Source: Trypanosoma brucei (taxonomy: Eukaryota). From it: 64,000 nucleotides of DNA. Position 1 is the stretch's first letter, and every line of letters begins with the position of its first letter. The stretch is taken from assembly GCA_000002445.1 (NCBI GenBank), contig CM000208.1, positions 3,456,001 to 3,520,000 on the forward strand, written 5' to 3'. Positions 3,299-56,723 of this stretch are shown here, piece after piece. The notes under the pieces are model-generated. The model worked only from the letters and a program-made list of their open reading frames with translations, was not told the DNA's origin and ran no database searches. A program made the translations under genes and the position numbers.

Positions 3299-6200
3299 TT
3301 AGATGCCCTCCATCTGACGACCTCCTTTAACACCGTCGTCCTTTGTATTATCGGTGATGTTGTCACCGCTGACAAATTCTGATAACCTCCTTCCATTGCT
3401 TTTACACACTGACTCAAGAAGATCACGTTCGACGAAGAACTGCGGTTCTGCGCCGTGCTTTACCATACTATCAATGACTCGCATCGCATCCGTTGACGCC
3501 TTCATGTTCTCATGATAGTGCCTTACTAGCAAGGCGAAGATGTCACCAATGCGAATGGAAGATGTTATGTCCGCATGGTCCTTGTGGCTCGGTCGGCTTC
3601 GCTTAACAAGATCAGAGCAGACTGCAATGAATTCCTTCGCCTGCTCCTCTCCCTTGCCGCTGTCAGCAAGAAGTTTCACCGCTTTTACCGCCTGTGCCAC
3701 GATATCACGGCGGACGCGCAACCCCTCCATCTTTCCTGTAATGTTAACATCACACATCGCATCTCGGTTACGCTCCACTTGGCCAATACACTCATCCAAG
3801 GCACACCATGCATCGTAGTAGTTCCGGTTTTCATCGATTTGCAACTGGGCGTACGAGTCTATATAAGAAATGAGGTTTGTGAACGCTTTTGAACGCGTAT
3901 AAAACAGCACAATATGTTTGTGAATGTTTGCGTCGGTGTGCCAGTTCTGTGACTGCAGGAAATTACCGGCGAGAGTGTAGATCTCCGTACTTCGTGAGTG
4001 GTTCGCGAAGAAAATAACCTTCTTTACGTCACCGCCGCGCATAAGCATTTTCATGGCCTTCACCCGCTCCCCTAATTGCGTATATTTTCTGCACGCAAGG
4101 TTCCAGTTGCCCTGATCCCTCGCAATACCAGCGATCTGCCGCTCCAATTCAGTCTTTTGATCATCCGAAAGCTGGCGCCTCTTCGCTTCAGCGGTGATGG
4201 CATCAGCCATTTCGTCGGTGAGGCCAACACCACGCTCCACACAAAGAGTGAGCGCAGAGGGGTATTCTCTCGCAAAAATATACATTTCTGCTGCTTTGGT
4301 GTAGTGGCCACTCTCTACAAAGTGAGAAGCCATTTGAAGAAAAACCTCTGCATCCTTTTCGGCGTTGAGAGTAGAGCTTATACGGTGCATAGCGTCATAC
4401 TGTTTCCCCTTAATGCACACGTCGATCGCCTTTTGTATGTCTCCTATACGATGATACAGATCCACTGACATTTCGTACACACCGTTATGTTCAAGGAATG
4501 CGGCACAGTCAAGCATTAGATGCGTGTCCTCACTGTTTTGAGCAATCGTTAACAACTCGCTGTGCCGCTCGTGCGACTTGGCCACTTTGGCAGCTGCCCG
4601 CCACGCACCAGCGTGTTGATAATATTTCAGCGCAGATGTTACGTCACCGTTACGTTCGTAGTGCTTGCCAACAAAGTACGCTGCACCAACTGGTTCGATG
4701 GATTGATTTGGCGATGACTGCATCAGCGGGGTCCTGGAACTCTCAGCTTCGCTGCGCCTCTTTTTAATCTCATTGTCTACAATATCAATGGCCTCCTGTG
4801 TTTTTGGTGGTGACTCGTTGAAAAGGAGTCGCACGGTGTTGAAGACATCCCCAGCGAGAGTGTAAAAGTTCGTTGCCTCGCTGAATTTCTTTCGACGCTC
4901 AGCCTGCCGCGCCCACCAATGCAGGAGCTCAGGGTTGTGCGCAAAGAGCTTCTGCAAGATGGGCTGCACTTGGTTGTCGTCATGACCTCTATCATCGCTT
5001 TTCGGATTTCCCCCGGCGCTTGCCGCTCGTACCTCTCCGTCACCTGCAATACCAACACTTTTTGGGTCGGTGAGACTGCTGGCGGGATTCGCTGGTGCTT
5101 CTGCCTCCGCGTTTGACCTGCCTTTGTCAACCGTTGCAACCTCCGCCGATTCTCTCTTCTTCTCAGGCGGTGTCACCAAAAGACGGAGATCAGAGAGGCG
5201 ACCGTTCTGGAAGTACAAACGTACAACGTCCGTGTCAAGGCACCTTGCATTGCAATACCACATCACCGCCGCATCAAAGTTGGAGAAGGACTCCATAAAC
5301 TGGGCGTACTTGTACGCGACTGGGTACACGCGAATGCGGTCGTGCTCACGTGCGTGACGTTGCGCCTGCTCAAACTTTCCACAAGCAATGAAGAGATCGG
5401 TAATCAAGTCGAACCGTTTTGCTTTTCGCAGTAGTTCCTCACATTCCCTCACAAGACCGAGGCTGCAAGCAAGTGTGGCAACCTGTACCTCCTTTTCACC
5501 AGGGTAGTTCGTTCGAGCAACACGAAGGGCGCTTGCAGCAACACCATCTTGCATTTGCGCCAAGCAAACACTAGCAACGTCCAATCGACCGGAGGCAACG
5601 CACATCTTTGCGAGGCTCTGCCAAACGGTGGCAGTCTTAATCGTCTTAACACATCGGTAGGCCTCATCCATATTCCCGACTGTTGAGTAATAGCTAAATT
5701 TCATGAGAGCCTCCAACACTGCCGCGTCCTTTTCAGTCTTCAATCCCTCAAAGTCCCGAAGCCGCTTCTGTTCAATCATGTAGTCCTCCGGATTGCCAGG
5801 GTCGCCGTTAATGCGAACCGAAGTAAGTAAGAAGTCAGGGATCGTTAGGCCAACCAGACATATGTGATATCGCTTCAGTTCCACGGAGTTGTGCACCACA
5901 AGACCTCTGTTGGTTGCGAAAAGTGTTACAAGGTTGTGCGAGCGGTGGGCAAGTGGGTTCACTGCGCTGAAGCCATTTTCAGCGTCCTCAGCGGCCGATT
6001 TGCCTTTTGCGTCCGCAAAGTTCTCCAGATCAGGCATCGCGCCATTAGTTGCCTCTTTGCTCTTAGATTCGGTCGGTTGAGATGTCCTTTTCGGAGAACG
6101 CACACCGCTTTCCCTGTGTTCTGGTGGGCTACAAGTGTCCCTGCCATCGACGTTCCCTTGAGGTCCCGTGGGTTTTTGTTCATCAGGCTGGGAAACGCCC

Positions 6201-8389
6201 TTCAACTGATGCGTTTCGCAGGCCAGTAAAAGGTATCCGGGCTCGCCAAGGGAGTTGCCATTCGGCTCAGGAGTGTTCCAGTATACAGCATGTGGAATTT
6301 CCATCCGTTCCATGAAATCATACGAAAACATCAGATCGGTATCAGCATCATACACCCAAACACGAGTGTCCGGCTGGTCGTTTGAGACGCACCGAGCCAT
6401 TAAGGCCACACGGCGACCTTCAGCATTAACTTTGATACTTGTCACAACCAAATCGTTTCCAAGCTTCGGAAGGAGCCGAGGAGGACCCAAGGGCGTCACC
6501 TCATTACTGTTCACAATGGCTAACCGCATTGCATTCTCAGACGATAGCGCCACGACAACATCTGACATCACATCAACTAATGTTGGTACACCCTCAGCTT
6601 CCGTAAATGCAATCTGCCCTATCATAATCATTTGGAAACTGGAGAACACAATCCGATGGGTGTCCCTCACGTAAAAGATTCCAGACTGGTGAATAGCGAA
6701 TGCCGGGTTCTTGGATGGGACGGAGCTAGTCAGTGTCGCCGTAGAGGTAGCCTCGTTGACGGTGTATAGGTCAATTTGATATCCGTTCCAAAGGCCGATG
6801 ATAGGAAAGGCGATGGACACACCGTATATCTTGCTGCTGCTCTTTAGTAAGCATTGGCAGCCGGTAACACTTTCAACCACCGCCACCTCCATCGAAATTT
6901 GTGTAGCAGCAGCAACACCATCCCATGCGCGTTTCCGAACTGTTTCCCGTAGCATCTGAAGTTTTCCGTTGGAAAGCGTAACATATATGTAGTTATTTCC
7001 ACTGAAACAGAGTCGCTCCACACGGTCCTCTACCTTGACAACCGTCAGCAGTTCCCACTCAGCAGCTGGGTCACCATTGCTCTCGAAAGCACCCGCTTTC
7101 TCTGTACCTTTATTGAACGCATTGGAGGAAGCTGCGGAACCACTTCTCATTCCTACGTCAAACGCACTCACTCCCATGGCATCGTACGGGCTGCTACTCC
7201 CCTGGCAAACAAAGGAAGGTTTCTGGAATACGGCAACTGATCCCTCAGCCGTTGCCATCACGAGGAGTCCCTTTTTCGTCAACGTCGCAATGTGTACGAC
7301 GTGCGCTGATGGAGCCGATGGATGCATTACAACGTACATTCTATCACTTTGCACATTGAAAAAACGCACCCGGTCATCCCCACATCCAAACACGAGTACA
7401 CCGGCAGAAACCCATTCCATCGCTAACGGGTTCCGATTGGCTGAGGCGCCAGGAACCGGTATGGAGAGCTTGCGCCTCATCACTAACTCCGCAACAATGG
7501 TGGGGGTAACACGGTACACAGTCAACATGTGCGTCAAACTGAGAGCAACAAGATAGCGCTCTACCGGGTCATACAAAACTGCGGCTGCAGTTTCTTCCAT
7601 GGTAGCGAGAGGAAACAGTTTCTGTTCCTCGCTGAGTCCAAAAATTGTCTTTCCCTTGCTGGACGCAAGTATGAACACGCACTCGCTTTCACCGTCATCA
7701 AGTCCAGCTGCCTGGAGATTTGCTGTTGTCGAGCCCTCAGCGTTTTCCCCCTCGGCTGCAGGTTTCCGCTGCTGGCGCTGCGACCGCTCCCGTGCCACCA
7801 CAGGCGGTGTCGACACACGCATGGCATGTGTTACGGTTTCGTCCGTAGTAACAGACCACTGTGGGGCCACTGTCGAATGCGAAGCTGGTTTCCCTGCCGA
7901 ATCAGCTTCGCCTTCAGCAGCTGTGGCGCCGCTATCGAATACCCACATAACCGCACGCTTTGAATCGGCCGCCGTCACTAGGTACGCGCCGGAACCGGAC
8001 CATTCACACGCTGTCACGGAGCCATTGACGTGCTGCACCCGGGCGCTTTCTACATCTACCGGTGGGTGTAATGTGAAGTTTGCATCCGTGGGTTTCGTGG
8101 GTGGAAGTGTCCAAACGAGCAACTTCCCACTTCTCGTCCCAATTGCCAAAACTGGCCGGGCTGGGTGCCATGCCAAGCAAGTCACATCATCAGTTGCCTT
8201 TGTACCATCCGACTGACTTTGCGGCTTGGGCGTGTGGTCGGCAACGCTTTCACCCTCCGAGTCTGTTACCAACACATGCAGCGGGTTTGTCCATACGGAA
8301 GCAACAAGTGGCAACTGGGGATGGGCCACAACGTGAGTTGCTGAGACGGCGCCACGACTCGCTATGTTATTCACGAAGTACAGAGACAT
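3299..8389 (-). CDS. IFT140: Intraflagellar transport protein IFT140 (IFT-A complex), 1696 aa; N-terminal WD40 propellers and C-terminal TPR-like solenoid
   Basis: ATG at 8389..8387 and TAA at 3301..3299. The C-terminal blocks VGNMDEAYRCVKTIKTATVWQSLAKMCV and KYTQLGERVKAMKMLMRGGDVKKVIFFANHSRSTEIYTLAGNFLQSQNW match remembered IFT140 signature regions. Length and WD/TPR architecture fit, and there are lineage-specific low-complexity inserts. Confidence 0.75.
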   Translation of the reverse strand: MSLYFVNNIASRGAVSATHVVAHPQLPLVASVWTNPLHVLVTDSEGESVADHTPKPQSQSDGTKATDDVTCLAWHPARPVLAIGTRSGKLLVWTLPPTKPTDANFTLHPPVDVESARVQHVNGSVTACEWSGSGAYLVTAADSKRAVMWVFDSGATAAEGEADSAGKPASHSTVAPQWSVTTDETVTHAMRVSTPPVVARERSQRQQRKPAAEGENAEGSTTANLQAAGLDDGESECVFILASSKGKTIFGLSEEQKLFPLATMEETAAAVLYDPVERYLVALSLTHMLTVYRVTPTIVAELVMRRKLSIPVPGASANRNPLAMEWVSAGVLVFGCGDDRVRFFNVQSDRMYVVMHPSAPSAHVVHIATLTKKGLLVMATAEGSVAVFQKPSFVCQGSSSPYDAMGVSAFDVGMRSGSAASSNAFNKGTEKAGAFESNGDPAAEWELLTVVKVEDRVERLCFSGNNYIYVTLSNGKLQMLRETVRKRAWDGVAAATQISMEVAVVESVTGCQCLLKSSSKIYGVSIAFPIIGLWNGYQIDLYTVNEATSTATLTSSVPSKNPAFAIHQSGIFYVRDTHRIVFSSFQMIMIGQIAFTEAEGVPTLVDVMSDVVVALSSENAMRLAIVNSNEVTPLGPPRLLPKLGNDLVVTSIKVNAEGRRVALMARCVSNDQPDTRVWVYDADTDLMFSYDFMERMEIPHAVYWNTPEPNGNSLGEPGYLLLACETHQLKGVSQPDEQKPTGPQGNVDGRDTCSPPEHRESGVRSPKRTSQPTESKSKEATNGAMPDLENFADAKGKSAAEDAENGFSAVNPLAHRSHNLVTLFATNRGLVVHNSVELKRYHICLVGLTIPDFLLTSVRINGDPGNPEDYMIEQKRLRDFEGLKTEKDAAVLEALMKFSYYSTVGNMDEAYRCVKTIKTATVWQSLAKMCVASGRLDVASVCLAQMQDGVAASALRVARTNYPGEKEVQVATLACSLGLVRECEELLRKAKRFDLITDLFIACGKFEQAQRHAREHDRIRVYPVAYKYAQFMESFSNFDAAVMWYCNARCLDTDVVRLYFQNGRLSDLRLLVTPPEKKRESAEVATVDKGRSNAEAEAPANPASSLTDPKSVGIAGDGEVRAASAGGNPKSDDRGHDDNQVQPILQKLFAHNPELLHWWARQAERRKKFSEATNFYTLAGDVFNTVRLLFNESPPKTQEAIDIVDNEIKKRRSEAESSRTPLMQSSPNQSIEPVGAAYFVGKHYERNGDVTSALKYYQHAGAWRAAAKVAKSHERHSELLTIAQNSEDTHLMLDCAAFLEHNGVYEMSVDLYHRIGDIQKAIDVCIKGKQYDAMHRISSTLNAEKDAEVFLQMASHFVESGHYTKAAEMYIFAREYPSALTLCVERGVGLTDEMADAITAEAKRRQLSDDQKTELERQIAGIARDQGNWNLACRKYTQLGERVKAMKMLMRGGDVKKVIFFANHSRSTEIYTLAGNFLQSQNWHTDANIHKHIVLFYTRSKAFTNLISYIDSYAQLQIDENRNYYDAWCALDECIGQVERNRDAMCDVNITGKMEGLRVRRDIVAQAVKAVKLLADSGKGEEQAKEFIAVCSDLVKRSRPSHKDHADITSSIRIGDIFALLVRHYHENMKASTDAMRVIDSMVKHGAEPQFFVERDLLESVCKSNGRRLSEFVSGDNITDNTKDDGVKGGRQMEGI

Positions 8390-10633: not shown

Positions 10634-13231
10634 TTACAACTTCTTACGCGTGAGACTCCTCGATTTCACTGGCGGAGTCGTTACGTTTTCATTGACTTCG
10701 CGTACACCTTGCGTGAAACTGCGGTTCCTGCGGTTGACACTAGCAACTTTGGGGTTGGAACCCGTACCTCTACCACTCCGTCCGCCTACCCCTGTTGCGG
10801 AATCAACGGTAAGCTTACAAGGAGGTGTTAGAGACGGCTTCATTTCACTTTTGATGGATCTCAATGATTCACATCCGTTTTGTTCCATCTCTTCTTCCCT
10901 TGATTGATCCGTCATCGACATCTCCTCCCTTTCGCTCGTATGGTCAAGGGGCGGCAACACTCGCCCGGGAACGGCATCTGGTCGACGTCTGTGGAGCCGT
11001 GGAAAGGACTGTACCGAGCTGGCGCTGCTGCGTTGCGGGTTTGCACAACAAGTGGGGGGTGTTGCCGGAGTTGTTGGTAGGAATGTTGAACCGGACAGTG
11101 AAACCGAAGCACTGAGGCGTGTACCACTAGCGGTTGGAACGGTATCAGACCGCACAATGTCCCTCTTCAGTGCCTGGGGCGTGGTTCCCTGAGATCGCTT
11201 GGTGGCAGCAAATGTATTACGAGTGAAGAGGTTGGGATCATTATCGCTGGCACCAGTTTCACTACGATGTACCTCCAGTGGACGGCCCGCAGTCTCGTCT
11301 GACCTTGCGAGAAGGGCACGGATTCCACGGGCTCCCGCCGCTACAACGACATCACTGGAAACCTGTTTATGAAAGGCCCTCACCTCAGCGCTCGTGCCGT
11401 TTCTTGGCTCGTGGCCATCAGCTTTACCATCGTCAGGACCCGTAACTACCCCGACACCATAAACTTCAGCAATGAAGTCATCCATGAAACTGCTGAACCC
11501 ATCAAAAGACGAAATGGATTGGAGAAGCCGCCACGCAGGATATGATAACACGTCTATTGACCGACAATGTGTTTGGTGTGTGTCACGTGAGCCGTCACTC
11601 CCACCCTCAGGGTATTCACCAGTACTGCTGCCCGCAAGATCAACATCGTAAAGCGTTAAAACAAATTCTTCCATGCTGAAGCTCGGTACTTGCCTCCTGA
11701 GCAACTGGAGAAGGAAGTTACTGACACAGCTGCTGTACCGCTCGTAGACGGAAAACGCCTCGTGAGGATACTCGCGGATCGAACTACTCGCGCCTCCACT
11801 GCCACCCCCCTGCAGAAACAGTTTGTGGTGCTCGAACAAAAAGTTACCCAGTTCGTCAACAACTTTGCGGTTTGACGCCGCCCGTTCCAATACACGCACG
11901 CTCATATGGAAACGATCAAGGGCCTGCTCCGCCGCAGTGGCAAGCAAGTCACCGTCCGCGGTGAATAAAGCCTCCAACCCGGGGCGGTGAGAGGGGGAAA
12001 TTCCCTCTTCCTGTTGCCGCTCAAGGGCTGATCTTGCGTTGTGCCGAGCCCGTTCCGCAGTTACAACATCCATAAGCGTAAGGGGCGCACCAAACGTGCA
12101 GGGTGCACTCGCTAAGCTAACTCCAGGGTCAGCGGTGCTGGGGAAGCTTGTGGTTGATAAGCTCGCGTGTATCGCGGGGATTGAGGTGTCCTTGTAGGCA
12201 CCCAAAGCCGCCAGTGTAAAGGCTTCACTCATGTGGTCCGTTGCGATAAAGTATTTGTTAGATGCGGTGGATGCACCAGCATCACCGTCGCCTTCGGCAC
12301 CGTCTCCCTCCTGGTATGCATCGTACAAACTTAGAAGCACCCGCTCTTGCAATTCAGAAAATGTGCGTGGAGGTTGAGCAAACATCCTGCGTGCCGTTTC
12401 CGGTTGACTTTGATTGTCACTGCCTTCGATGGGTAGGTGGTCCACGGATGATAACGACTGATACTCCTTCCGCTTCTCACCGACTTTTGATTCCTCGGCA
12501 AATATCTCAAGAAGGCGGTCAAATTCACGCCCTGTTTGACTTCCTTCTGATGCTCCTAACCCTTGCAGCGCCTCCCTCACAGCGAGAGGAGTTTCAACAG
12601 ATGCTAGGGGAGAACTTCTACCGCTGGAGTCACATCCGGTATTGCTTTGATCCTTAGTGCTGTTTATACTACAGCTTGTGACATCGTCTCGATGGTGTAG
12701 TGCGTACTTGGGACTCGTTGCGCCATGGGTACCGCCGACCTGCTGAGGTACAGACAACTGGGCCATTCCCAACAAAGGTGCCGAACCCACCGCACCTCTT
12801 CCTTCATTTTCTGTATGGGATTTCTCTCGGTTATTGTCCGCCTTCCCGGTGCCAGCAATCTCACTCCGCGGAAACAGCAGCTGTACAGTACGCTGACGTG
12901 CGACACGGTAAAGCTCCGGATCACTTGTAGACGACTCGGCATCACTTTTGGGAATTTGCGAGGAGGTCAACGACGCGTTACTGACGCTGTCCTTACAGGC
13001 GTTCGCGTTCCGAGGCCGAACTCCCCGCCAGTGCGAGGGATTTCTTACATTTGACCCACTGTCATCACTGCTACCGCTACTCGTGGCACTGTCACTACTG
13101 ATTGACCGCGCGCTTCCCACCGTCGGCTTCTTTGAAGGGTTGGTGCCGCTTCGCGCACTCGTCACCCCCCATTGGCCGCGAGCGGCACGACGGGCACGTT
13201 CAGGGTCAATACGCTTTGGTTTAATGGCCAT
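10634..13231 (-). CDS. Hypothetical Ser/Thr-rich low-complexity protein (865 aa)
   Basis: Long ORF with ATG at 13231, sitting in the same strand and polycistron as its neighbours. No recognisable domain; large disordered S/T/P-rich segments. Confidence 0.5.
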   Translation of the reverse strand: MAIKPKRIDPERARRAARGQWGVTSARSGTNPSKKPTVGSARSISSDSATSSGSSDDSGSNVRNPSHWRGVRPRNANACKDSVSNASLTSSQIPKSDAESSTSDPELYRVARQRTVQLLFPRSEIAGTGKADNNREKSHTENEGRGAVGSAPLLGMAQLSVPQQVGGTHGATSPKYALHHRDDVTSCSINSTKDQSNTGCDSSGRSSPLASVETPLAVREALQGLGASEGSQTGREFDRLLEIFAEESKVGEKRKEYQSLSSVDHLPIEGSDNQSQPETARRMFAQPPRTFSELQERVLLSLYDAYQEGDGAEGDGDAGASTASNKYFIATDHMSEAFTLAALGAYKDTSIPAIHASLSTTSFPSTADPGVSLASAPCTFGAPLTLMDVVTAERARHNARSALERQQEEGISPSHRPGLEALFTADGDLLATAAEQALDRFHMSVRVLERAASNRKVVDELGNFLFEHHKLFLQGGGSGGASSSIREYPHEAFSVYERYSSCVSNFLLQLLRRQVPSFSMEEFVLTLYDVDLAGSSTGEYPEGGSDGSRDTHQTHCRSIDVLSYPAWRLLQSISSFDGFSSFMDDFIAEVYGVGVVTGPDDGKADGHEPRNGTSAEVRAFHKQVSSDVVVAAGARGIRALLARSDETAGRPLEVHRSETGASDNDPNLFTRNTFAATKRSQGTTPQALKRDIVRSDTVPTASGTRLSASVSLSGSTFLPTTPATPPTCCANPQRSSASSVQSFPRLHRRRPDAVPGRVLPPLDHTSEREEMSMTDQSREEEMEQNGCESLRSIKSEMKPSLTPPCKLTVDSATGVGGRSGRGTGSNPKVASVNRRNRSFTQGVREVNENVTTPPVKSRSLTRKKL

Positions 13232-47685: not shown

Positions 47686-48486
47686 TTAAGCAGCCACCAT
47701 CTTCCTTCCCATAGAGAGGAACTCGGAGTGCTCGTCGGTGGGGTCGCGCGACACCTCCGTCTCCGCCCAGAGGTCGGGGGTAAGGAAGCCGTATGTCTTG
47801 CGCAGTGCATAGAATGTGGCCATGATGAAATTACCACGCGTACGCGTCTTACCACATGAGCTAGTATATACGTCCTCAACGCCGGCAAACTCAAGAATCT
47901 TCTTCGGCACAGGCGCAGCAACGATACCAGCACCACGTGGAGCAGGGATCAAGCGAACGGCAACGGAGCCGCACTTCCCGGTTACCTTGATAGGGATTGT
48001 ATGCGGTTCACCGATCTTGTTACCCCAGTAGCCACGGCGCACAGGCACAATACTCAGCTTCGCAGCGATCATTGACGCACGGATGGCCAGGGACACCTCC
48101 TTGCCGACGCGGGCGCCGACACCAATGTGGCCGTTACCGTCACCAACAACATTGAAGGCCTTGAAGCGTGTGCGCTGTCCGGCAGACGTTGCCTTCTGCA
48201 CGGGGAAAACAAGCATCATCTCATCACGGAGGTCGCCTTCGCGGATCAGTTGGTCCACGATCTGATGCTCTTTGATGGGCATCGAGAAGAGGAAGATTTC
48301 CTCCAGCGAGGTGATCTTTTGATCCTTCACAAGGCGGCCAAGTTTTGTGCATGGCACCCATTCCTTCTCATCACCACCACCGCCACGACCGCCACGACCA
48401 CCGCGACCGCCGCGACCGCCACGTCCGCCACGGCCACGACCGAAGCCGCGCTGCTCGCCACCTGTACCGCGTGGTGCGTCAGCCAT
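47686..48486 (-). CDS. RPS2: 40S ribosomal protein S2 (uS5) with an N-terminal (GRG)n tract, 266 aa
   Basis: ATG at 48486. N-terminal [16 protein letters not shown], followed by a conserved S5 domain ([31 protein letters not shown]...[15 protein letters not shown]...[38 protein letters not shown]). Confidence 0.92.
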
Positions 48487-48968
48487 TCTCGGTTCAACTA
48501 TGACAGCTTATCGTTTCAAATAACGGAGGAAAAAGCAATAAAAAGAGCAAAGACAAATTTTTTAAAAAAAAAACGAAAGAAGGTGCTGCAGTGATCAAGG
48601 GAAAGGGAACCTCAAAAAGGGAATGAAGTACGCCGACGCCCACAGACAAACATACGTAGTCAAAAATTAATCAGAACGCCTTCTAATCGCAGAGATCGCT
48701 CGGTGAAAGCCACCCGAGTAGCTAGCAGCATGCTAGAAGATATTGTACATCTGTCTCCCCGCGAAAGGGAAAAAAAAACATACAAATAAACATATATACA
48801 CGCTATAATACAGTTCCTTCGACCTCGTCTATTCCCCTGAACTCTATTACCACTACAGTTCCACTCTCTCAATTTTTCCAACACTTAATTTGTGATAATG
48901 AAAAAGTTGGGGAACCCTAACTTCAGGAATATATATGTATGAGTATTTTCACCGGCGTGCCCTCACTC

Positions 48969-51900
48969 CTACACCGTTGCGACTACCTGCGTTAGATGCT
49001 CCATGCGGCGAGCGGTGAGTGTGGCCTCCAGTTGGCCGAGGGCATCCTCGGCATCTACAGCGCCATCGAAGCGCAAAAGCACACCGAGGTCGACAAACAA
49101 CAAACTCTTTATTTGCCGTATAACCTCCGCCAACACCGGAAGGTGCGACTCCATTTCCAGCTTGCGGCTCCACAAGGAGAGTAGCTCTAATCTAGTGGCA
49201 TTGGAACGCAACAACTCAGCGAAATTCAGCAACTCACCCGCAGTAAAAGGGTTGTCAGACACAATAAGTTCCTGCAGAGACGCCAGTACTTCGTCTGGGA
49301 AAGCTTTAGCATCAGCCACTTCGGCATTCTTAATACTAAGAAACCTGAGGCCTGACGGCTTGAGGAACTTAAAGGCTGCCGATACACCCACTGCCCCGAG
49401 AGGTATTTGATCAAGCGACAATCTCTCCAGTGTTCCCTTACACCGAGATAGTAGGCATCCGAGTGCACCACCACCTTCAGCACCACCCAGGTTGTTACGG
49501 GACAACTGTAACTCCCGCAACACAAAGTTGCCTTCCGGGGATGCTCCGGACCACTTCAGAATGTGCTCTGGTCCCAATTCATTGCCATTAAGATGAAGGA
49601 TATCCAAACGGCTGCATAATCTACCCAGTGCCTCGACTTCATCGTCACCCCAACACTGGGAGAGGTCGTTAAAACCTAATAACAGTGTTGTGATATTACC
49701 AGCAGCAACTGCAGACAAAAGTTCAAAAAAACAGGAAGACTTGGAACCCTCTTGGTTGACGTCCGGGCACTCCGATGAATCGGGTAGTCCCTCCCCCAAT
49801 ACCTCCGTACCCGCTTCATGAGACAGCTCGACAAACCCAATGCGATTACCCTCAAGTGAAAGCGAAGTAATCGTCTTGTTGGTACACAAACTCTCAGCCA
49901 GTGCGCGGATGGTTTCCGGGTACATGTCATTGTACGCTAGATCAAGCACCTTAAGCGTGTTATTGCGACGAAGAGCCGCGAAGAGAGAAGAACAACCGGG
50001 CGTAACACCGCTGGGCACATCCACGACACTCGGCGCAACTGCCTCATCCCCATCGCTTGCAACATCTTCAACTACCTTTGCCGCGCGCTTCCTCCCGAAG
50101 ACATTGCGGCGCAAAAGAAGGCACTCTACCGTCTTATTTTCCGCGAGGACGTTTCCGATATGCTTCATTCCGTGGCTTCCAATCTGGCAACTTCCAAGGT
50201 CCAGTACTCGAAGGAAAGGAACGCAGCGTTTTTGTGAAGTAACGGGTATACTCCATTTTCCGAGAACATCCAGAAGCGCCGATATTTCCTCCTCTATGTT
50301 ATTGACATCCCCTTCTCCATCCGGGCTGGGTATGTGCTGATCATCTTCGTGCACCACCGGTTCCTGTTCTTCGTCCCCCCCGTGCTGGTCCTCGTCAAAT
50401 TCCCCACCATAATCACTTGCTGCGCCAAAAGTGGCTGTTTCGTCAATAGCCAAGACGTCTGCACTTGCCCTTGAGTTCCCTGTAATCCACGCCTTAAAGG
50501 TTTGTAACCACAAGAGGTACTCAGATTGCATCCGGTCACGCTCGCGCGACTCCTCAACCAGCGTCCTCTTGTAATCTACTGTCAATTTGTTGAGCAGTCG
50601 GTCCGCATCGTTCGACAAATCCTTTTGGATACGCTCTTCCTCCTCCTCCTCAAGCTGTAACTCGTGCCGTAACGCAGAGGCTAAAGCAACAGCACCTTTA
50701 TTCCCAATGGGGTTGCCACGCAGACGAAGGACCTGTATGTGTGACCACCCGCTCCGGCGCCTGCAGTACTTGTCAATCTCAACACGTTTTTCTTCAGCCA
50801 ATTCCTCACGGATGATGGCGTGCTCCTCCATCAGCAATGAAGCCTCACGTACATATTGATTAGCACAACCCCGGCGTAACTCCCTCTCCTCCTTGTATAA
50901 CCTACGAAATAGGCGGTTGAACTTCCTCTCTAGATGTGGTGGAAGGGGTTTGGGCTTCCCTTCTCCCTCTTCATCCTCCTCCTCTTCTTCTTCCTCCTCC
51001 CCTTCCTCTTCCGCATCCCCGTCAGCCGCGTCCTCCTGCTGCTCCTCATTCCCTTCATCCTCTTCATCCTCCTCGTCGTCATTTTCATTATCCGACCCAT
51101 CTTTCATTAGTGGTGAACCACCTTCCTGTGTGCCATCTTGGTCGGTGCCCTCTTCCTCCACGGGGTCCTCTACTTCCTCGTCATCTTCAAAATCATCCCC
51201 TTCATCCTCTTCTTCATCCTGGCCAATAAAAAAGGAAACGGATTCAAGACCAACACCATCATCCTCCTCGTCCACAACAGCATCTTCCTCCCCATCTTGC
51301 ACATCCTGAGGATAGAGCCGTGTGTCAGACTTCACGAGGGCTTCCAGCAGCTGCTGCGCCGTTATCCCATTGATGTTATTATTATTAAGGTTCAGGTCGA
51401 CAACGAACTTATTAAACTTAATAAATTCGACAAGTTGCGCTAACGCATCGCTGTCATCCTTCGTCAGACCTAAGTCATTGCCTTCAAGATCCAGAACGCG
51501 AATCATCGTATCCTTCAGCATCGGCAGCAGTGACTCAGCAACCCGACCAAACTTTGTGTTGGGCAAACCCAACACCTCAAGCTCCTTTGCTCCATGAAAA
51601 AAATTCTGGAAATCGTCAATTGAAGAACCTTCAACGAACTCACCGGAAACTGTAAGGGAACGAAGATGCCCCAACATACGGTGGTTTGCACATATAACGG
51701 TAAAAATGTCATGAATCGCAACAGTTTTCGCCGGTGCTAACATGAGAGTGACATGTCGCATATTATCCGATGTCCTGTAGTCTTTGGATTGCGCCTCCGT
51801 TCGTACAATGTGATTAAGAAAATCCACTATTTGATCTGAGGGAAGCTGAACATTCGAAAGAGCTTCGGGTGACGGAAACGCATTCCATATGTGTGAGGTA

Positions 51901-52280
51901 TGGTAACCTACAAGTGGCTGACCTCTTGGAGTCGTACAGCGGACCTCATCCTCAACATTCGCAACAAGTGGTTGGGTACCGTTAGAAAAAACGCGCGCGG
52001 CAGAACAACTACTGCATGGCCACCATGCCAAATTAGATCTAGAACATACAATAGACGCGTTGAACCGTAAAATTGAACACTCCACTTCCCGCGCCACCTC
52101 CGCCTCAAGAGCCTTGGCTGCAATGCCGTGTTGGGCCGCGATATCACCCTTTACTTTCGCACTGTTTACCCGTGGAGGAGCAGCAGCAACTCCACTTTCT
52201 GCGGCACAACTCCCCAAATGCAAACTATCAAACTGCACAGCATCGTCGGCGGAGGAAAATGTACACCATGATCGTGACAT
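48969..52280 (-). CDS. Leucine-rich repeat (RNI/ribonuclease-inhibitor-like) protein with a long acidic E/D tract (1103 aa)
   Basis: The track start 52283 is GTG; the ATG is at 52280. There are many LxxLxLxxNxIG units (LRVLDLEGNDLG, LKVLDLAYNDMYPETIRALAESLCTNKTITSLSLEGNRIG, LDILHLNGNELG and others). A poly-E/D block sits at about 50950-51300. Confidence 0.6.
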   Translation of the reverse strand: MSRSWCTFSSADDAVQFDSLHLGSCAAESGVAAAPPRVNSAKVKGDIAAQHGIAAKALEAEVAREVECSILRFNASIVCSRSNLAWWPCSSCSAARVFSNGTQPLVANVEDEVRCTTPRGQPLVGYHTSHIWNAFPSPEALSNVQLPSDQIVDFLNHIVRTEAQSKDYRTSDNMRHVTLMLAPAKTVAIHDIFTVICANHRMLGHLRSLTVSGEFVEGSSIDDFQNFFHGAKELEVLGLPNTKFGRVAESLLPMLKDTMIRVLDLEGNDLGLTKDDSDALAQLVEFIKFNKFVVDLNLNNNNINGITAQQLLEALVKSDTRLYPQDVQDGEEDAVVDEEDDGVGLESVSFFIGQDEEEDEGDDFEDDEEVEDPVEEEGTDQDGTQEGGSPLMKDGSDNENDDEEDEEDEGNEEQQEDAADGDAEEEGEEEEEEEEDEEGEGKPKPLPPHLERKFNRLFRRLYKEERELRRGCANQYVREASLLMEEHAIIREELAEEKRVEIDKYCRRRSGWSHIQVLRLRGNPIGNKGAVALASALRHELQLEEEEEERIQKDLSNDADRLLNKLTVDYKRTLVEESRERDRMQSEYLLWLQTFKAWITGNSRASADVLAIDETATFGAASDYGGEFDEDQHGGDEEQEPVVHEDDQHIPSPDGEGDVNNIEEEISALLDVLGKWSIPVTSQKRCVPFLRVLDLGSCQIGSHGMKHIGNVLAENKTVECLLLRRNVFGRKRAAKVVEDVASDGDEAVAPSVVDVPSGVTPGCSSLFAALRRNNTLKVLDLAYNDMYPETIRALAESLCTNKTITSLSLEGNRIGFVELSHEAGTEVLGEGLPDSSECPDVNQEGSKSSCFFELLSAVAAGNITTLLLGFNDLSQCWGDDEVEALGRLCSRLDILHLNGNELGPEHILKWSGASPEGNFVLRELQLSRNNLGGAEGGGALGCLLSRCKGTLERLSLDQIPLGAVGVSAAFKFLKPSGLRFLSIKNAEVADAKAFPDEVLASLQELIVSDNPFTAGELLNFAELLRSNATRLELLSLWSRKLEMESHLPVLAEVIRQIKSLLFVDLGVLLRFDGAVDAEDALGQLEATLTARRMEHLTQVVATV

Positions 52281-52570
52281 CACAAATATATTTACTCCTA
52301 TCTTACACAGGTAACAATCAGGTCACAACAAGGTAAAAAAGAAAAAGAAAAATAACTAAACTACCAACAAACACACCAAAGTACAAACCGTACATAACTC
52401 TGATTAACATATGCTACGAACCTTCATGCATCACCAAATAAAAAAAATAACAAACAAAAAGACACATTAACCAGAATTTTTAAAAAAAAACAAAAATAAA
52501 AATATACATAAACTAGGATCACCAACAAAAAAAATTATCATACAAAGCAACAACACAACATCTAAACTAT

Positions 52571-52726
52571 TTACCATGAATTAACGACCAACTTAAATAT
52601 TGCCTCCCCTTCGGGATTCTTGTCAGGATGTAACTCGAGCGCCTTCAGTTTGTAAGCCTCTCGTATTCCGTCCTTAGACGCAGTCCTTGGAACCCCCAGG
52701 ATCGCATAATAGTCCGCCTGCTGCAT
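52571..52726 (-). pseudogene. Orphan J-domain fragment (51 codons with intact HPD, truncated in helix III)
   Basis: Minus-strand ATG at 52726 gives [51 protein letters not shown] and then TAA at 52573..52571. This is the canonical J-domain helix I-II plus the HPD loop. It is too short for the ORF track cutoff. There is no continuation in any frame downstream. Confidence 0.4.
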
Positions 52727-53275
52727 ACCGTACTTTTTCCCTTCCCTTTCTCAGCAGTAATAAGGGAGAAGTGCAGTGGTAAAAGAAGTAGAAATAAAAT
52801 AAGAGACAGCGACTTTAAGAAGCAGCAACAGACTCATAGATCCAACAAGACAATCAATAGCGAGCTCGGCAAGCACGTAAGCACCGCCCCCATTTACACA
52901 CAAGAAAAAGGAAACATATACTCCGTTGCTTACACGGTCAAGGGGGAAGGATCATAGGGAAACCAGGCAAGCAAAGCCACAATACGTTTCGCCCCACTAT
53001 CGGCAGGGTAAACCACCACATATTAAAGACGAACAGGAAGACATGGAGACAACACGCCACGCACAGAAGCCACACCCAACGTATATAAGTGCGCGAGTCC
53101 CATCTTCTCACACTAGCCATCTATTACATTCAATACTGCATAGGACAAGGGCGTACAGAGAAAATTCAAGCAACCATTCTGAACCGGTTATCCAACAAAT
53201 AAAAATATGCTGCATTCCCTTAACCATCCACACCACAGCATCCTAAAAGGAATGACGGTAACGCACTACGTATGT

Positions 53276-54433
53276 CTATTCACCGTTCCGCCGTCTCTCC
53301 TCCTCTATCGCATCTTCCCATTCAAGATCCTCCATTATGCTCTCCGACTGCCGCAGTGCAGCTGGAAGGCGCGAAAGGACGAAGCCTACTGCGCAAAGTA
53401 ACACAATGGTCTCACCCCACAGTCCAATATATTCCTGCATGAAGTCCAGCCACGAAATTATCACACGGTATTTAAACGTTCCAAGCGTCATCTCCTGTCC
53501 CCATCCACCACTGCGAGCACTGGTATACCGCATATGCTCTGGAGGCTTTATCCCATAGAGAAGATAGTAATTACGTGCCTCAGGGTTCACAAGAATGTCG
53601 TATGCATCCTTCAGCTCCTCAAGAACCATCGACCGGTCTTCCTCATTCTTCTCCGTCTCTTCCACTAATTTCTTTTTTGTTTCGTATGCTCTCTTCAGTT
53701 CAGTGGGGTCGACTGAGCGTGCGTCCTTCGTATCCTTCGTGTCCAGCAAAACACTGAAAAGTTCACGGTCTACCTGAGAGGCAAGGCGATTGTACGCAAG
53801 CTCCACCTGTTGATTATTGGCTTCGCACGCACGACCACAGTGAACCAGCTGCCCTCGCGCATCCTGATGTTCTTTATACGCCTTACGGATTTCCTGCCGG
53901 ATGCGGTAGTTCTCCCGCCGTCGTTCCTTGTCAAGGTCCTCTCCACCTGCCTCATCAGCAGCAGCTCCGGTAGATTTCGGACGGATTCTCCCCTTCACAC
54001 CCAATATTTCGTAATAGCTCTCCGCTTCACTTGGAGTGACGGCACCATCATGAGTCGGATTGACCTCACCGAACCCTTTGCCACTCTCAATCTGAGGTGG
54101 CTCCAGGTTAAACTCCACGTCATACTTCGCTAACGCAAGCAACGAAATGGCAATCACTACCGCTACGGAGAAAAAAATGCGAAACATAGAGCCAGAATTT
54201 TCATGCTCGCCTACGACAGCATCCCACTCGGCTTGAGTGATTATACCACGGTTGGGGTCCCGTCGAGAGTAGCGGTTGGTATTAGCAAACCGTGAATTGG
54301 GCCGCTGCACACCATACATGGCGTTGTGCCGTGCAAACACATCCTCCCGAGCAGCACGAGCCGCGCTCTCCTCCAGCTTGTTACGCCGCTCCTGAGCCTG
54401 CTGCTGCCGTATTTGCGCTGCTCGAGGTATCAT
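53276..54433 (-). CDS. J-like (degenerate DnaJ domain) membrane protein, hypothetical (385 aa)
   Basis: The track start 54442 is TTG; the ATG is at 54433. It carries ESYYEILGV...IRKAYKEHQDA (HPD replaced by HQD), then LEELKDAYDILVNPEARNYYLLYG (J helix III/IV-like) after an insertion. There are two hydrophobic segments (FFSVAVVIAISLLALA and IVLLCAVGFVLSRL). Confidence 0.5.
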   Translation of the reverse strand: MIPRAAQIRQQQAQERRNKLEESAARAAREDVFARHNAMYGVQRPNSRFANTNRYSRRDPNRGIITQAEWDAVVGEHENSGSMFRIFFSVAVVIAISLLALAKYDVEFNLEPPQIESGKGFGEVNPTHDGAVTPSEAESYYEILGVKGRIRPKSTGAAADEAGGEDLDKERRRENYRIRQEIRKAYKEHQDARGQLVHCGRACEANNQQVELAYNRLASQVDRELFSVLLDTKDTKDARSVDPTELKRAYETKKKLVEETEKNEEDRSMVLEELKDAYDILVNPEARNYYLLYGIKPPEHMRYTSARSGGWGQEMTLGTFKYRVIISWLDFMQEYIGLWGETIVLLCAVGFVLSRLPAALRQSESIMEDLEWEDAIEEERRRNGE

Positions 54434-54943
54434 ACTTAGCAACTTAGAGCTACACTCCCCATTAGTAACAAATTAAAAACAGGATTCAAGGAAGAAGAGG
54501 GGGAAAAAAAAAAGAAACGGTGATACGACGGGGAAAATAATCGAAGGAAAGCAGTTTGGTGCGGAAATAGGATTGCGCAAACAATCGCAATGTAGTCGCC
54601 CACATACCACACAGTCAGTTACGTCCCTGTTATTACGTAAAATGATTAACGTCGATCATATAAATGATTTCATTATTCTTTTATTTTCCCCCACTCATAC
54701 AGAAAACTTCCATTTACTTCCGTTGCATATTCATCTTTCTTCTCTTGCCTTATAATAGTTTTTCTCGCTGTTATTCGCTGGTCCCTTCTTAATGTTCGTT
54801 TCCCCTCCCCACTCCAACCCGGGCGTAGGAAACGTGAAACACAAACATATAATCTCAGATCACACAGTCAGACAAAGAGCTCCCCACGCAGCCTCTCCCA
54901 CCAAACGTGGCTTTCCTACATCCTTTTGTCCACATTCCTATTC

Positions 54944-55663
54944 CTATTGCGGGGGGGATTTGTAGTAACCTGTAACCACAGCGTGGTCACGCTCGAACGG
55001 TTCCAGCGAGGCCTGTTCCTTCGGTCTCAGCCCTGAGTCCTTCAGCTTCTGCACCTCCGATGCAAAAACAGTAGCAGAGTCCGCTGTCGAATCAATGCAA
55101 TTGGCCTTTATCGAAATAACAAAACCACCGTTCTGTTTCAAAAAGTGTTGTGCATTCAGAGCTAATATTCGCGCCTGGTCGGGTTGAGCAACATCCATAA
55201 AGATGCAGTCTACCAAACGCGGTATCAGCATCCGATATTTCTGCGGGTAGCGGGCATCCTCAAGGATCGGGACAATATTACTCCGACGTTTCGACATCTC
55301 CTCCAGGTCACGCCCGCTACGGTGTGAGAACTCCACAGCGTACACAACACCCTCCGGACCCACCAAATCAGACACATGACTAACAGTTGTCCCACTGGCA
55401 GCACCCAGGTATAACACTGTTGAGCCCGGTTCCATGTATATCTGAGCAACACCAGCGTAAATCGCCGCCGCAAGTTTCGACCGGTATGGATTCCACACGC
55501 GGAACTCGCAGGACTCGGTCTCTCCGGCAATTGTACCGCTTACGCGCTTCTCACCGTATATGGAGACACCAGGTACGAGTGACTTTGTGGCAAGAGTGTC
55601 TTTACCCGCAAGGAGGTAGCAGCCACGCATACGAGCATGGGGTTGAAATATGTTGCCCTTCAC
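54944..55663 (-). CDS. NOP1: Fibrillarin (NOP1) methyltransferase domain. The N-terminal GAR domain is absent or interrupted, and the start codon is uncertain
   Basis: There is a strong full-length match of the C-terminal two-thirds to fibrillarin ([65 protein letters not shown]...[39 protein letters not shown]). The track start 55663 is GTG, and the first ATG is at 55630 (MRGCYLL). Upstream in frame are the remnant GAR codons [12 protein letters not shown], preceded immediately by TAA at 55702..55700. Confidence 0.8.
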
Positions 55664-55817
55664 CCCACCGCCGGCTTTGCCTCCGCCTCGTCCGCCAAAT
55701 TATTATACTACCAGTTAATGAAAACATTAACAATTTCGGTGCTACAACATTGTTCTTACGATATCTTATTATTTTCTGATGGGCGATTGTACTGTACAGG
55801 AGTCGTGGGGGGTATAT

Positions 55818-56060: not shown

Positions 56061-56723
56061 TCACGTGTTTGAGCGCCCACGCTTCCTAAACACTCGGTGA
56101 AGGGAACGAAGTCTTCTATACTGTTTAACTTCATCACTTTCCTGATCCAGAATCAGGTGGACGGCGAAACTGGTTGCTCCACAAAACGGGCAAACCGATG
56201 CGGGATCGTCATCCACGGGGCAATCCTTTTTTGCAGCAGCTGGTTTCCCAACAGACTCATTCACCGCAGCGCAAGCCACAACGTGCCCGCAAGACCAAAA
56301 CCCAAGAAATTGGTGAAGACCTGAGGCAGAGTCATAACCTGTTACTGGGCACCGAATAAGCACCTTTCTGTCCTTCCCCTCCTCTACGTTCGACACCTCA
56401 CACACATCAGATAGTTTCGATATTTTCATATCGCTGTTCAAATCGCTACTGCTCTGCTTATGGAGTGAACGTTTCTCCAATATGTTATCCAACACCGCCT
56501 TCTTTGAATACAGGCGTCCATAAAGATCAAAAACAACCGGAAGCTGCAGCGGCTCCAGTGACAGACCACAATGCGACCACCGCAAAACCTTTTCCTCCTT
56601 TAATTTTCGCGTCGTTTCTCCTCCACCATTGTCCCCTTTCCGCAGCTCATCAGCGGTGAGGAACACACGTGACTTTTCTAATATCCGCCGCTTGTTTGAG
56701 AGTGCTTGGCCATCGCCGCCCAT
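56061..56723 (-). CDS. Rtf2-domain (replication termination factor 2-like RING-type zinc finger) protein, 220 aa
   Basis: ATG at 56723. WSHCGLSLEPLQLPVVFDLYGRLYSKKAVLDNILEK, then CPVTG...CGHVVACAAVNE...CPFCG, which matches the Rtf2 C2HC2 arrangement. Confidence 0.6.
   Translation of the reverse strand: MGGDGQALSNKRRILEKSRVFLTADELRKGDNGGGETTRKLKEEKVLRWSHCGLSLEPLQLPVVFDLYGRLYSKKAVLDNILEKRSLHKQSSSDLNSDMKISKLSDVCEVSNVEEGKDRKVLIRCPVTGYDSASGLHQFLGFWSCGHVVACAAVNESVGKPAAAKKDCPVDDDPASVCPFCGATSFAVHLILDQESDEVKQYRRLRSLHRVFRKRGRSNT

Follow-up and report, generated by a model that had tools for sequence, protein, structure and literature searches.

A 51-codon J-domain fragment on Trypanosoma brucei chromosome 10, a probable DnaJ gene remnant at the edge of a 3.1-kb duplication

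A 51-codon open reading frame (ORF) that encodes part of a J domain is present on chromosome 10 of Trypanosoma brucei TREU927, the source of the window (the whole stretch of 64,000 nucleotides that was analyzed). The ORF (52571..52726, minus strand) is very probably a gene remnant, a truncated DnaJ copy at the edge of a 3.1-kb duplication. It consists of 50 codons from Tb927.10.14730 followed by a tryptophan codon and a stop. The initial annotation had offered a decaying duplicate of a J-protein gene as one explanation of this ORF, and that explanation is essentially right. The copy has been cut by a breakpoint more than it is decaying, and it is ~99% identical to its parent. The fragment is an ordinary gene remnant that has already been catalogued. 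Tb10.NT.160_1, also named getorf_Tb927_10_v5_-_43230, is the same object, with an identical 51-aa sequence at Tb927_10_v5:3580070-3580225, which corresponds to 52571-52726 of the window.

The J-domain fragment and its parent gene

The existence of the ORF, its sequence, and its nature as the N-terminal part of a J domain with an HPD had been claimed from the letters alone, and all of these are borne out. Scoring with the Pfam DnaJ profile (PF00226) had been proposed as a check, and the ORF passes it with 51.8 bits (cut-off 27.8, E=8.7e-14). The T. b. equiperdum and T. b. gambiense variants score 51.0 and 54.5 bits, respectively. The alignment to the ORF takes in profile positions 1-47 of 63. 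Helices I and II, the HPD, and about two-thirds of helix III are present. The AY..L..D..R..YD end and helix IV are missing, and the ORF does not make up a complete four-helix domain. It ends in ...KLVVNSW*, and at the same point the parent goes on AYQILRSPTKRRKYD. That the ORF ends within helix III was also correctly described, the right breakpoint of the duplication being in this helix. The HPD is intact in TREU927 (the window) and in T. b. gambiense, and is HPE in T. b. equiperdum GCA_003543875.1. The HPE variant comes from one assembly and could be a sequencing error. Inspection of the fragment by eye, with no predictor, gave no obvious signal peptide or TM segment.

The parent gene, Tb927.10.14730, encodes a 443-aa "chaperone protein DNAj" (EAN78839.1/Q388D1) and is found ~16 kb upstream, beyond the window. 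It was located via the syntenic loci of the 385-aa gene next to the fragment. A self-BLAST of 52001-56200 against the window gave no second copy, because the parent is ~4.8 kb past the window end. The parental copy of the duplicated segment (copy A) is likewise beyond the window in TREU927, and the DNA was compared with copy A of the other subspecies and with TREU927 protein records. Codons 1-49 of the ORF are 100% identical to the 443-aa DnaJ protein. The fragment and the parent also share identical 5'UTRs and splice acceptors. The J-likeness of the ORF is far beyond chance, since over 151 nt it has 149-150 identities to the start of a full-length DnaJ gene. Against copy A of T. b. gambiense and of T. 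b. equiperdum, the count is 150/151 nt. The parent J domain is complete (Pfam positions 1-63 of 63, 73.5 bits), and beyond it there are ~380 aa of charged, K/E/R-rich sequence. The position and length of the parent are conserved in T. cruzi and T. theileri. The initial annotation had held that clear homology to a 3'-truncated remnant of a known paralogue would make the ORF a simple pseudogene. Such homology was found, and the paralogue is Tb927.10.14730.

A protein database search with the 51-aa sequence gave no match, the sole candidate merely sharing words. An exact look-up of all three variant sequences found them absent from a collection of 15 billion proteins. The GenBank accessions of the flanking genes are consecutive, from EAN78828 (LRR protein) to EAN78829 (385-aa protein). 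The empty protein look-ups mean only that the ORF is unannotated.

The fragment has one private substitution per subspecies. These are D19E in T. b. gambiense, D35E (HPD to HPE) in T. b. equiperdum, and A50S in TREU927. All three are non-synonymous, and the sites that they hit do not vary among the orthologues of T. brucei, T. cruzi, and T. theileri. Four records (TREU927, T. b. gambiense, and both T. equiperdum records) have the same parent protein, and the dN/dS of its J region between species is 0.016-0.048. With 34 synonymous and 116 non-synonymous sites, three non-synonymous changes out of three have P~0.46 if neutral and ~0.001 under parent-like constraint. It appears from the sequences that the fragment is under relaxed constraint compared with its parent, an argument from selection that rests on a small sample (n=3 substitutions).

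The duplication and its gene neighborhood

The fragment is found at one end of copy B of a 3.1-kb segmental duplication (52576..55696), which is 99.4-99.5% identical to copy A, ~16 kb upstream. The homology block joins window positions 55696..52576 to positions 4736..7858 of the copy A loci (L005/L006) in 3123 aligned columns. The block is 3,121-3,123 bp long and the copies are 16,042 bp apart. Identity goes from 0.97-1.00 to ~0.25 past 52576, and it is likewise ~0.25 outside the other edge. The left edge is in the GAR-coding region of fibrillarin, and the right edge is at codon 50/51 of DnaJ. Between them, the block contains the 3' four-fifths of fibrillarin, the entire 385-aa J-like gene, the intergenic region, and 151 nt of DnaJ. 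From the breakpoint to the ATG of the LRR gene there is a unique spacer (52281..52575, minus strand). It provides the last codon and stop of the ORF, the 3'UTR and poly(A) site of the transcript Tb10.NT.160, and the T-rich tracts upstream of the LRR gene.

TREU927, T. b. equiperdum GCA_003543875.1, and T. b. gambiense DAL972 all have the same junction at the breakpoint. An assembly artefact was considered and rejected, given these three independent assemblies and the read-depth and hemizygosity data for the repeat pair (PMC4689576). Two near-identical regions of ~3.1 kb that flank 12.9 kb have been described, and crossover between them had removed one allele from a clone under drug selection (Jones et al., 2015; PMC4689576). 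This repeat pair (Tb927.10.14620/14630 and Tb927.10.14740/14750) matches the measurements made here in size (3.1 kb), spacing (12.9 kb), and identity (~99%). Jones et al. (2015) name two intact or annotated genes per repeat, and mention neither the 151-nt DnaJ end nor the 5' truncation of the fibrillarin copy.

Fibrillarin, the 385-aa gene, DnaJ (443/444 aa), SH3/PEX13, and RPS2 occur in this order in T. b. gambiense, T. theileri, and T. cruzi, and this is the ancestral order. In T. vivax and T. melophagium, the LRR gene comes straight after Rtf2. In the window, the Rtf2 RING-finger protein (Tb927.10.14640; 56061..56723, minus strand) and its ancestral downstream neighbor, the 1103-aa LRR protein (Tb927.10.14610; 48969..52280, minus strand), are on either side of copy B. 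The ORF sits between the LRR gene and the 385-aa gene (Tb927.10.14620; 53276..54433, minus strand), 549 nt downstream of the latter. The fibrillarin of copy B (Tb927.10.14630; 54944..55630, minus strand) encodes 228 aa. The left breakpoint has removed its 5' end, and with it the GAR (RGG) region that is present in the 304-aa copy A. A tblastn search of the Rtf2-LRR spacer in T. vivax (406 nt) and T. melophagium (233 nt) found no copy of the J fragment, the 385-aa gene, or fibrillarin. The ORF has a near-identical parent, homology that ends inside the coding sequence at the block edge, and no counterpart in the outgroups, as is expected of a pseudogene relic.

It is very probable that, in the lineage leading to T. 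brucei, the Rtf2-LRR spacer received a copy of a 3.1-kb stretch of chromosome 10 from ~16 kb upstream. With the right breakpoint within helix III, the copied frame would have entered the spacer and stopped after 5 nt, which would give 51 codons. The copy would then have evolved free of the constraint that acts on the parent. The high identity of the fragment to its parent reflects a young duplication and is kept in part by gene conversion between the repeats. Residue 244 of the 385-aa protein is T in both TREU927 copies and A in both copies of T. b. gambiense and T. b. equiperdum, a sequence pattern that points to concerted evolution of the repeat copies.

Processed RNA and translation data

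A 324-nt transcript model, Tb10.NT.160 (52425..52749, minus strand), has been published for the fragment (Kolev et al., 2010, Table S7; Ericson et al., 2014, Additional files 1 and 3). The fragment is thus not a silent relic, since a processed RNA is on record. The coordinates of the model were brought to window numbering via the ORF position. It has a 23-nt 5'UTR, the ORF at nt 24-176, and a ~145-nt 3'UTR, and its last ~150 nt are unique to copy B. It belongs to a set of novel transcripts for which trans-splicing and polyadenylation are reported (Kolev et al., 2010; PMC2936537). Two AG trans-splice acceptors (52746..52751, minus strand) are present. The AG at 52751-52750 gives the 23-nt UTR, and the AG at 52747-52746 gives a 19-nt UTR. 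Both were inherited with the parent upstream region, and the parent splice sites (3596293 and 3596289) are 23 and 19 nt upstream of the parent ATG. The Kolev transcript start is at 52749 (PMC2936537), and a spliced leader (SL) site is recorded at 3580244, which is 52745 in the window (Jensen, 2014; TriTrypDB v5). Upstream of the acceptors, within the duplicated block, there is a polypyrimidine-rich tract (52752..52830, minus strand). It probably acts as the splice signal, judging from the general signal for trypanosome trans-splicing.

The copied polypyrimidine tract and AG acceptors would thus have come to lie with the LRR splice signals just downstream. Given this arrangement, coupled trans-splicing and polyadenylation would be expected to make a short, capped, polyadenylated RNA, Tb10.NT.160. 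The published RNA is not an argument for function, since polycistronic transcription would be expected to yield it. Eukaryotic genomes have truncated ("unprocessed") duplicated pseudogenes at the breakpoints of segmental duplications, and these likewise show a partial copy whose homology stops with the larger block, chance closure of the frame, relaxed constraint, and retained upstream signals. Unlike the usual truncated pseudogenes, those of trypanosomes have no gene-specific promoter to lose. A splice acceptor suffices, and the remnant is expressed by default.

Ribosomes may load on the fragment, and the product would be without helix IV and the last part of helix III. The ORF has been listed with a DnaJ CDD match (cd06257, E=7.3e-14) and no MS peptides (Ericson et al., 2014; PMC3942054). 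Ribosome profiling has also put it among the candidate CDSs, with footprints at 80.9x coverage on 88.6% of the ORF (Vasquez et al., 2014; PMC3973304). Within the 151 nt shared with the parent, footprints and SL tags are inseparable from those of the parent, because reads were mapped with bowtie2 in local mode and the methods mention no filter for unique reads.

These data could be read as signs of a functional mini-J-protein, as the initial annotation had also suggested. A 51-aa peptide would be made, and its helix II and HPD would bind or stimulate Hsp70, or it would act as a decoy. The frame is open in three subspecies, two of which retain the HPD, a discrete processed RNA of 324 nt has been published, and ribosome profiling has made the ORF a candidate CDS. 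The Pfam score also lies well over the threshold. Apart from this score, the same points are the ones that speak against a remnant, and they do so weakly. With only three substitutions an intact frame is expected by chance, and the footprints, through multi-mapping, could equally be those of the parent. In addition, the domain stops at Pfam position 47-50 of 63, without the conserved end of helix III and helix IV. All three substitutions are non-synonymous at invariant sites, and one of them turns HPD into HPE. Four proteomic comparisons (three MS data sets from Ericson et al., 2014, and one from Vasquez et al., 2014) yielded no peptide of the ORF. The ORF is missing from the accessible part of Jensen's list of translated novel-transcript CDSs, and among the outgroups examined (T. 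vivax and T. melophagium) the fragment is absent. A mini-J-protein is therefore very unlikely, and a peptide from the remnant would probably have no function.

Some LRR mRNA may also have a long 5'UTR that includes the fragment as a uORF. The inherited acceptor would then give the LRR gene a 465-nt 5'UTR in which the 51-codon uORF lowers LRR translation, or competition between acceptors would change LRR mRNA levels. An LRR 5'UTR start at 3580244 (window 52745), 19 nt upstream of the fragment ATG, is consistent with this (TriTrypDB v5; Jensen, 2014). Of the SL reads that were assigned to this gene, the site accounts for 186 (19.9%). However, these tags are indistinguishable from those of the parent, and ~80% of the LRR-assigned SL reads are at other sites. 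The Kolev model is a separate 324-nt polyadenylated RNA that ends ~145 nt upstream of the LRR ATG. No long-UTR isoform is seen in the two RNA contigs for the LRR gene (L017 and L018), and nothing points to selection on such an effect. It is unlikely that a regulatory by-product of this kind explains the fragment. The broader proposal has about the same low probability. It would make the ORF a T. brucei-specific, expressed micro-ORF that was born at the breakpoint, is translated, and has a role, either as a decoy or modulator that binds Hsp70 or in tuning the LRR gene, as a uORF or by competition between splice sites.

In RNA contig L016, the spliced leader is attached 21 nt before the ATG of the 385-aa gene, but the contig runs on into full-length copy A. 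Contigs L001-L003 are fibrillarin copy A, and L017 and L018 have no spliced leader. Cis-splicing of the J exon to the LRR gene at the breakpoint (...TCATG|GTAAAT) was considered as well. Cis-introns are extremely rare in trypanosomes. This reading was dropped because of that rarity, because no RNA evidence supports it, and because the alignment with the LRR proteins of T. vivax and T. melophagium begins at the ATG and holds through the N-terminus from residue 1.

The J-like neighbor and the meaning of the remnant

The 385-aa protein Tb927.10.14620 is an intact duplicate, a J-like protein with two TM segments whose paralogue is Tb927.10.14740. It had been described as containing a split, degenerate J domain in which HQD replaces HPD. 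The neighbor is indeed J-like, and it contains both strings, YYEILGV and KAYKEHQDA. However, profiles and fold comparison give the best support to a J-like domain at residues ~224-296, in which ETE takes the place of HPD. A PROSITE domain at 224-294 is quoted for this protein (bioRxiv 10.64898/2026.04.03.716285). A family profile gave E values of 9e-4 to 0.01 against PDB J-domain chains at profile positions 261-320 (~residues 239-296), and the top Foldseek matches are J domains (probability 0.98, E 0.16). The protein thus fits a J-like domain without HPD at ~224-296. The segment that bears the HQD (residues 130-232) has faint, non-significant J similarity (E~0.6-1.4), and six of 20 orthologues match Pfam DnaJ there, the best with an E of 0.0054. 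In the AlphaFold model, the HQD is within a long helix (165-194) and not in a loop. No kinetoplastid orthologue has HPD at this position. H189 is nearly invariant across the kinetoplastid orthologues, and the Q and D positions vary. Tandem J-like repeats, with 130-232 as a candidate first degenerate J domain, could be imagined from similarity at E~0.6-1.4.

A partnership of the fragment with the 385-aa protein, in the manner of the J and J-like proteins Pam18 and Pam16, had been proposed as well. Gene adjacency and the absence of HPD from the neighbor in all orthologues are the only points in its favor. To our knowledge, gene order in a trypanosomatid polycistron carries no functional implication. 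This adjacency was copied from the ancestral order of the 385-aa gene and the full-length DnaJ gene, an order that T. cruzi and T. theileri also have. The 385-aa family spans the kinetoplastids and the fragment is T. brucei-specific, so the pair is not conserved together. Tb927.10.14740 is reported to be a BiP-proximal ER/nuclear-envelope protein with a luminal J-like domain between its two TM helices (bioRxiv 10.64898/2026.04.03.716285). The fragment has no obvious signal peptide or TM segment by eye, and the two likely differ in compartment. The J domain of the HPD-bearing partner is also incomplete. The sole likeness to the TbPam18/TbPam16/TbPam27 system (PMC7064343, PMC11349236) is that one partner has an HPD and one does not, and by the tests run neither protein here is a Pam homologue. 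Such a pairing has next to no probability.

A truncated DnaJ copy thus accounts best for the ORF. The fragment ORF, its RNA, and the repeat pair were already known, the ORF from supplementary tables only (PMC2936537, PMC3942054, PMC3973304). In none of these three papers is the ORF identified as the 5' part of Tb927.10.14730, cut off at a duplication breakpoint, and none deals with multi-mapping with the parent. The finding carries little weight for chaperone biology, as the ORF is a remnant and not a new kind of J-protein. Where published lists enter the ORF under "novel small proteins" or "candidate CDSs", a flag is needed that it is a truncated paralogue and that its SL tags, RNA-seq reads, and footprints are confounded with Tb927.10.14730. 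The fragment is also a clean example of how a copied splice acceptor alone can give mature RNA from a gene fragment in a polycistronic genome. In addition, the 3.1-kb repeats are proven substrates for deletion of the 12.9 kb that includes PEX13, the DnaJ gene, and RPS2.

Origin of the J fragment

The 385-aa protein of this locus is EAN78829.1/XP_827941.1 of Trypanosoma brucei brucei TREU927, chromosome 10 (4.05 Mb). Through coordinates in published tables, the window was converted to Tb927_10_v5 3527500-3591499. Gene identifiers come from PMC4689576 (Table 2) and from tables in PMC4210626. The J fragment, a 51-codon ORF, has the position (window 52571..52726, minus strand), sequence and flanking genes described in the initial annotation. 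On one side is the LRR protein gene, Tb927.10.14610 (48969..52280), and on the other is the 385-aa protein gene, Tb927.10.14620 (53276..54433). Beyond the latter are a fibrillarin gene, Tb927.10.14630 (54944..55630), and then the gene for the Rtf2 RING protein, Tb927.10.14640. The ORF was scored against Pfam DnaJ (PF00226) at 51.8 bits (E=8.7e-14; cut-off 27.8 bits). The match spans profile positions 1-47 of 63, so that the ORF has helices I-II, the loop with HPD, and the greater part of helix III; helix IV and the last portion of helix III are missing. No continuation of the J domain was found 3' of the ORF in any other frame. The stop is followed by a T-rich spacer, which is typical trypanosome intergenic DNA.

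The J fragment is a duplicate truncated at the breakpoint of a segmental duplication that was already known. An array of fibrillarin, the 385-aa gene, a 443/444-aa DnaJ, SH3/PEX13, and RPS2 is conserved in T. b. gambiense, T. theileri, and T. cruzi. In T. brucei it consists of Tb927.10.14750, 14740, 14730, 14720, and 14710 (copy A), located ~16 kb upstream of the J fragment and just past the window end. Part of the fibrillarin-385-aa-DnaJ array is present a second time at window 55696..52576 (copy B). This stretch aligns with the equiperdum and gambiense arrays over 3123 columns at 99.4-99.5% identity, which drops to ~0.25 on either side. Copy B begins 162 nt into the fibrillarin coding sequence, where the RGG/GAR-coding repeats end. 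It then takes in the entire 385-aa gene with the intergenic region and breaks off after the first 151 nt of the DnaJ coding sequence. Across this breakpoint (slash), the parent reads ...GTT AAT GCA T/AC CAG... (…VVNAYQILRSPTKRRKYD…) and copy B reads ...GTT AAT (G or T)CA T/GG TAA. Thus, among the explanations first offered, a duplicate of a J-protein gene is the one borne out.

Rtf2 directly precedes the LRR gene in two T. vivax assemblies and in T. melophagium, where the spacers are 406 and 233 nt and gave no tblastn match to fibrillarin, 385-aa, or J sequences. Hence, it was on the T. brucei branch that the block entered the spacer between Rtf2 and LRR. TREU927, T. b. equiperdum (GCA_003543875.1), and T. 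b. gambiense DAL972 all share the junction; therefore, the duplication is older than their split. The repeat pair is already in the literature. Two near-identical chromosome 10 regions of ~3.1 kb flank 12.9 kb, and crossover between them removed one allele of Tb927.10.14620 to 14750 in an oxaborole-resistant clone (Jones et al., 2015; PMC4689576). The copy spacing measured here, 16,042 bp, minus 3.1 kb agrees with the published 12.9 kb. In T. equiperdum OVI, the accession order is LRR (SCU68232), full-length DnaJ (SCU68233), 385-aa protein (SCU68234), and then Rtf2 (SCU68236), and the longest contig with the LRR record is only 20 kb. This suggests a possible collapse or mis-joining of the 3.1-kb repeat pair in the OVI assembly.

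Divergence of the two copies

The two 3.1-kb repeats are homogenised. At residue 244 of the 385-aa protein (window 53704), TREU927 has T in its two copies, and gambiense and equiperdum each have A in theirs. As this strain-specific residue is common to both copies in each genome, the repeats are under concerted evolution. At the repeat edge, the 151-nt J fragment has a higher density of differences between copies A and B (2/151 nt in equiperdum and 2/151 in gambiense) than the remaining ~2,970 nt (5 and 3 differences, respectively).

Position 43 of the J fragment is V in gambiense and equiperdum copy B, as in T. cruzi and T. theileri, and is I in copy A and in TREU927 copy B. Therefore, some parent-independent history has been kept in the J fragment. 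Each subspecies also has one private substitution (D19E, gambiense; D35E, equiperdum; A50S, TREU927). None of these is synonymous, and each affects a residue that is invariant in the T. brucei, T. cruzi, and T. theileri parent orthologues. The parent DnaJ protein does not vary among the TREU927, gambiense, and two T. equiperdum records, and dN/dS of its J region is 0.016-0.048 between species. With 34 synonymous and 116 non-synonymous sites, hand-computed probabilities for this small sample of three substitutions are P~0.46 under neutrality and P~0.001 under parent-like constraint. The result is unremarkable if the fragment is neutral and very unlikely with parent-like constraint. D35E changes HPD to HPE. 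Thus, the HPD first described as intact is so in TREU927 and belongs to this strain, not to the element.

Another pair was observed nearby. The RPS2 genes Tb927.10.14600 (window 47686..48490) and Tb927.10.14710 (11157..11961 of the compared locus L005) are 99.6% identical over exactly the coding sequence (805 bp), with unrelated flanks. In T. vivax and T. melophagium as well, one RPS2 copy follows PEX13 and another lies 3' of the LRR gene. The pair is an old duplicate whose identity has been maintained, presumably through gene conversion.

Neighboring genes

The 385-aa family is conserved across kinetoplastids (46 matches). It combines two predicted TM helices with a J-like domain, and a profile of the family matches J-domain structures at roughly residues 239-296 (E 9e-4 to 0.01). 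Given the AlphaFold model (pLDDT 70), Foldseek ranked J domains first among PDB matches (probability 0.98, E 0.16). PROSITE PS50076 at residues 224-294 is cited in a 2026 preprint (bioRxiv 10.64898/2026.04.03.716285), in which the paralogue Tb927.10.14740 is reported to be a BiP-proximal ER/nuclear-envelope protein. A split, degenerate J domain with HQD had been proposed for this protein. A J-like domain is indeed detected, at residues ~224-296, with ETE at the HPD position. The proposed YYEILGV…HQD segment (130-232) resembles J-domain helix I and helices III-IV only faintly (E 0.6-1.4), and matches Pfam DnaJ weakly in 6 of 20 orthologues. As HQD sits within a helix in the AlphaFold model and only its H is conserved among orthologues, the protein has long been J-like without HPD and has not degenerated recently. 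Its position beside a J gene is ancestral synteny, which leaves the suggested Pam18/Pam16-like pairing unsupported. The family also has invariant non-J motifs, GQLVHCGRxCE (194-203) and KPP…GGWGQE (296-312). The two invariant cysteines of the former, C199 and C203, could be a disulfide or metal site, provided that the loop is luminal as BiP proximity suggests.

Fibrillarin copy B (window 54944..55696) has 228 aa from the first ATG, and copy A has 304 aa. Copy B is GAR-less because the left breakpoint falls at the end of the RGG/GAR-coding repeats. Its published spliced leader (SL) acceptor at Tb927_10_v5 3583290 (window 55791; 161-nt 5'UTR, 1052 SL reads, 97%) is outside the duplicated block, and so is copy-specific. 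Tb927.10.14630 appears to be genuinely expressed, and a GAR-less fibrillarin might have altered nucleolar targeting. Some T. cruzi and T. grayi fibrillarins are also annotated at 228 aa, and the T. cruzi fibrillarin adjoining the 385-aa gene is called at 291 aa. The 228-aa records are probably start-codon annotation differences, not independent truncations. The RNA-seq (Logan) contigs L001-L003, with a 239-aa product, have GAR-coding sequence upstream and are copy A with a split gene call. The LRR protein has a long acidic low-complexity insert in its middle part, at residues ~325-450 (window about 50930..51310), with D/E runs including EEEEEEEEDEE. Its T. vivax and T. melophagium orthologues align well only in the N-terminal third (42% identity, 32% coverage).

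Expression of the J fragment

Copy B retains the polypyrimidine tract of the parent, and with it the two AG acceptors that lie 23 and 19 nt 5' of the ATG. The ORF is already catalogued three times in supplementary tables. Tb10.NT.160, of 324 nt, is listed with 'novel transcripts' reported to be trans-spliced and polyadenylated, and starts 23 nt 5' of the ATG (Kolev et al., 2010; PMC2936537). Tb10.NT.160_1 [24-176] is the exact ORF sequence, with a CDD DnaJ match (E=7.3e-14); no peptide was found in three MS data sets and it was not followed further (Ericson et al., 2014; PMC3942054). The ORF is also a ribosome-profiling 'candidate CDS' with 80.9x coverage over 88.6% of its length and no peptides (Vasquez et al., 2014; PMC3973304). 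In Jensen et al. (2014; PMC4210626) and in TriTrypDB v5, the acceptor 19 nt 5' of the ORF starts a 465-nt LRR 5'UTR (186 SL reads, 19.9%).

Such data could be read as a mini-J-protein or a uORF role. However, reads in the first 151 nt could equally come from the parent DnaJ, and all evidence based on them is confounded. Vasquez et al. mapped theirs by bowtie2 in local mode, with no unique-read filter described in the methods (PMC3973304). In Tb10.NT.160, sequence unique to copy B is limited to the 3' ~150 nt, along with the poly(A) site. No copy-specific RNA contig for the J fragment was found among those examined. Contig L016, which opens with the spliced leader and confirms the ATG of the 385-aa gene, runs on into copy A. 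The published data give no evidence of a stable product. Even taken jointly, the mini-J-protein and uORF readings are considered very improbable. It is concluded that the J fragment is a remnant that is transcribed and processed by default, and ribosomes may scan its RNA. For users of T. brucei small-ORF lists, the warning is that this entry is a paralogue fragment with multi-mapping support.
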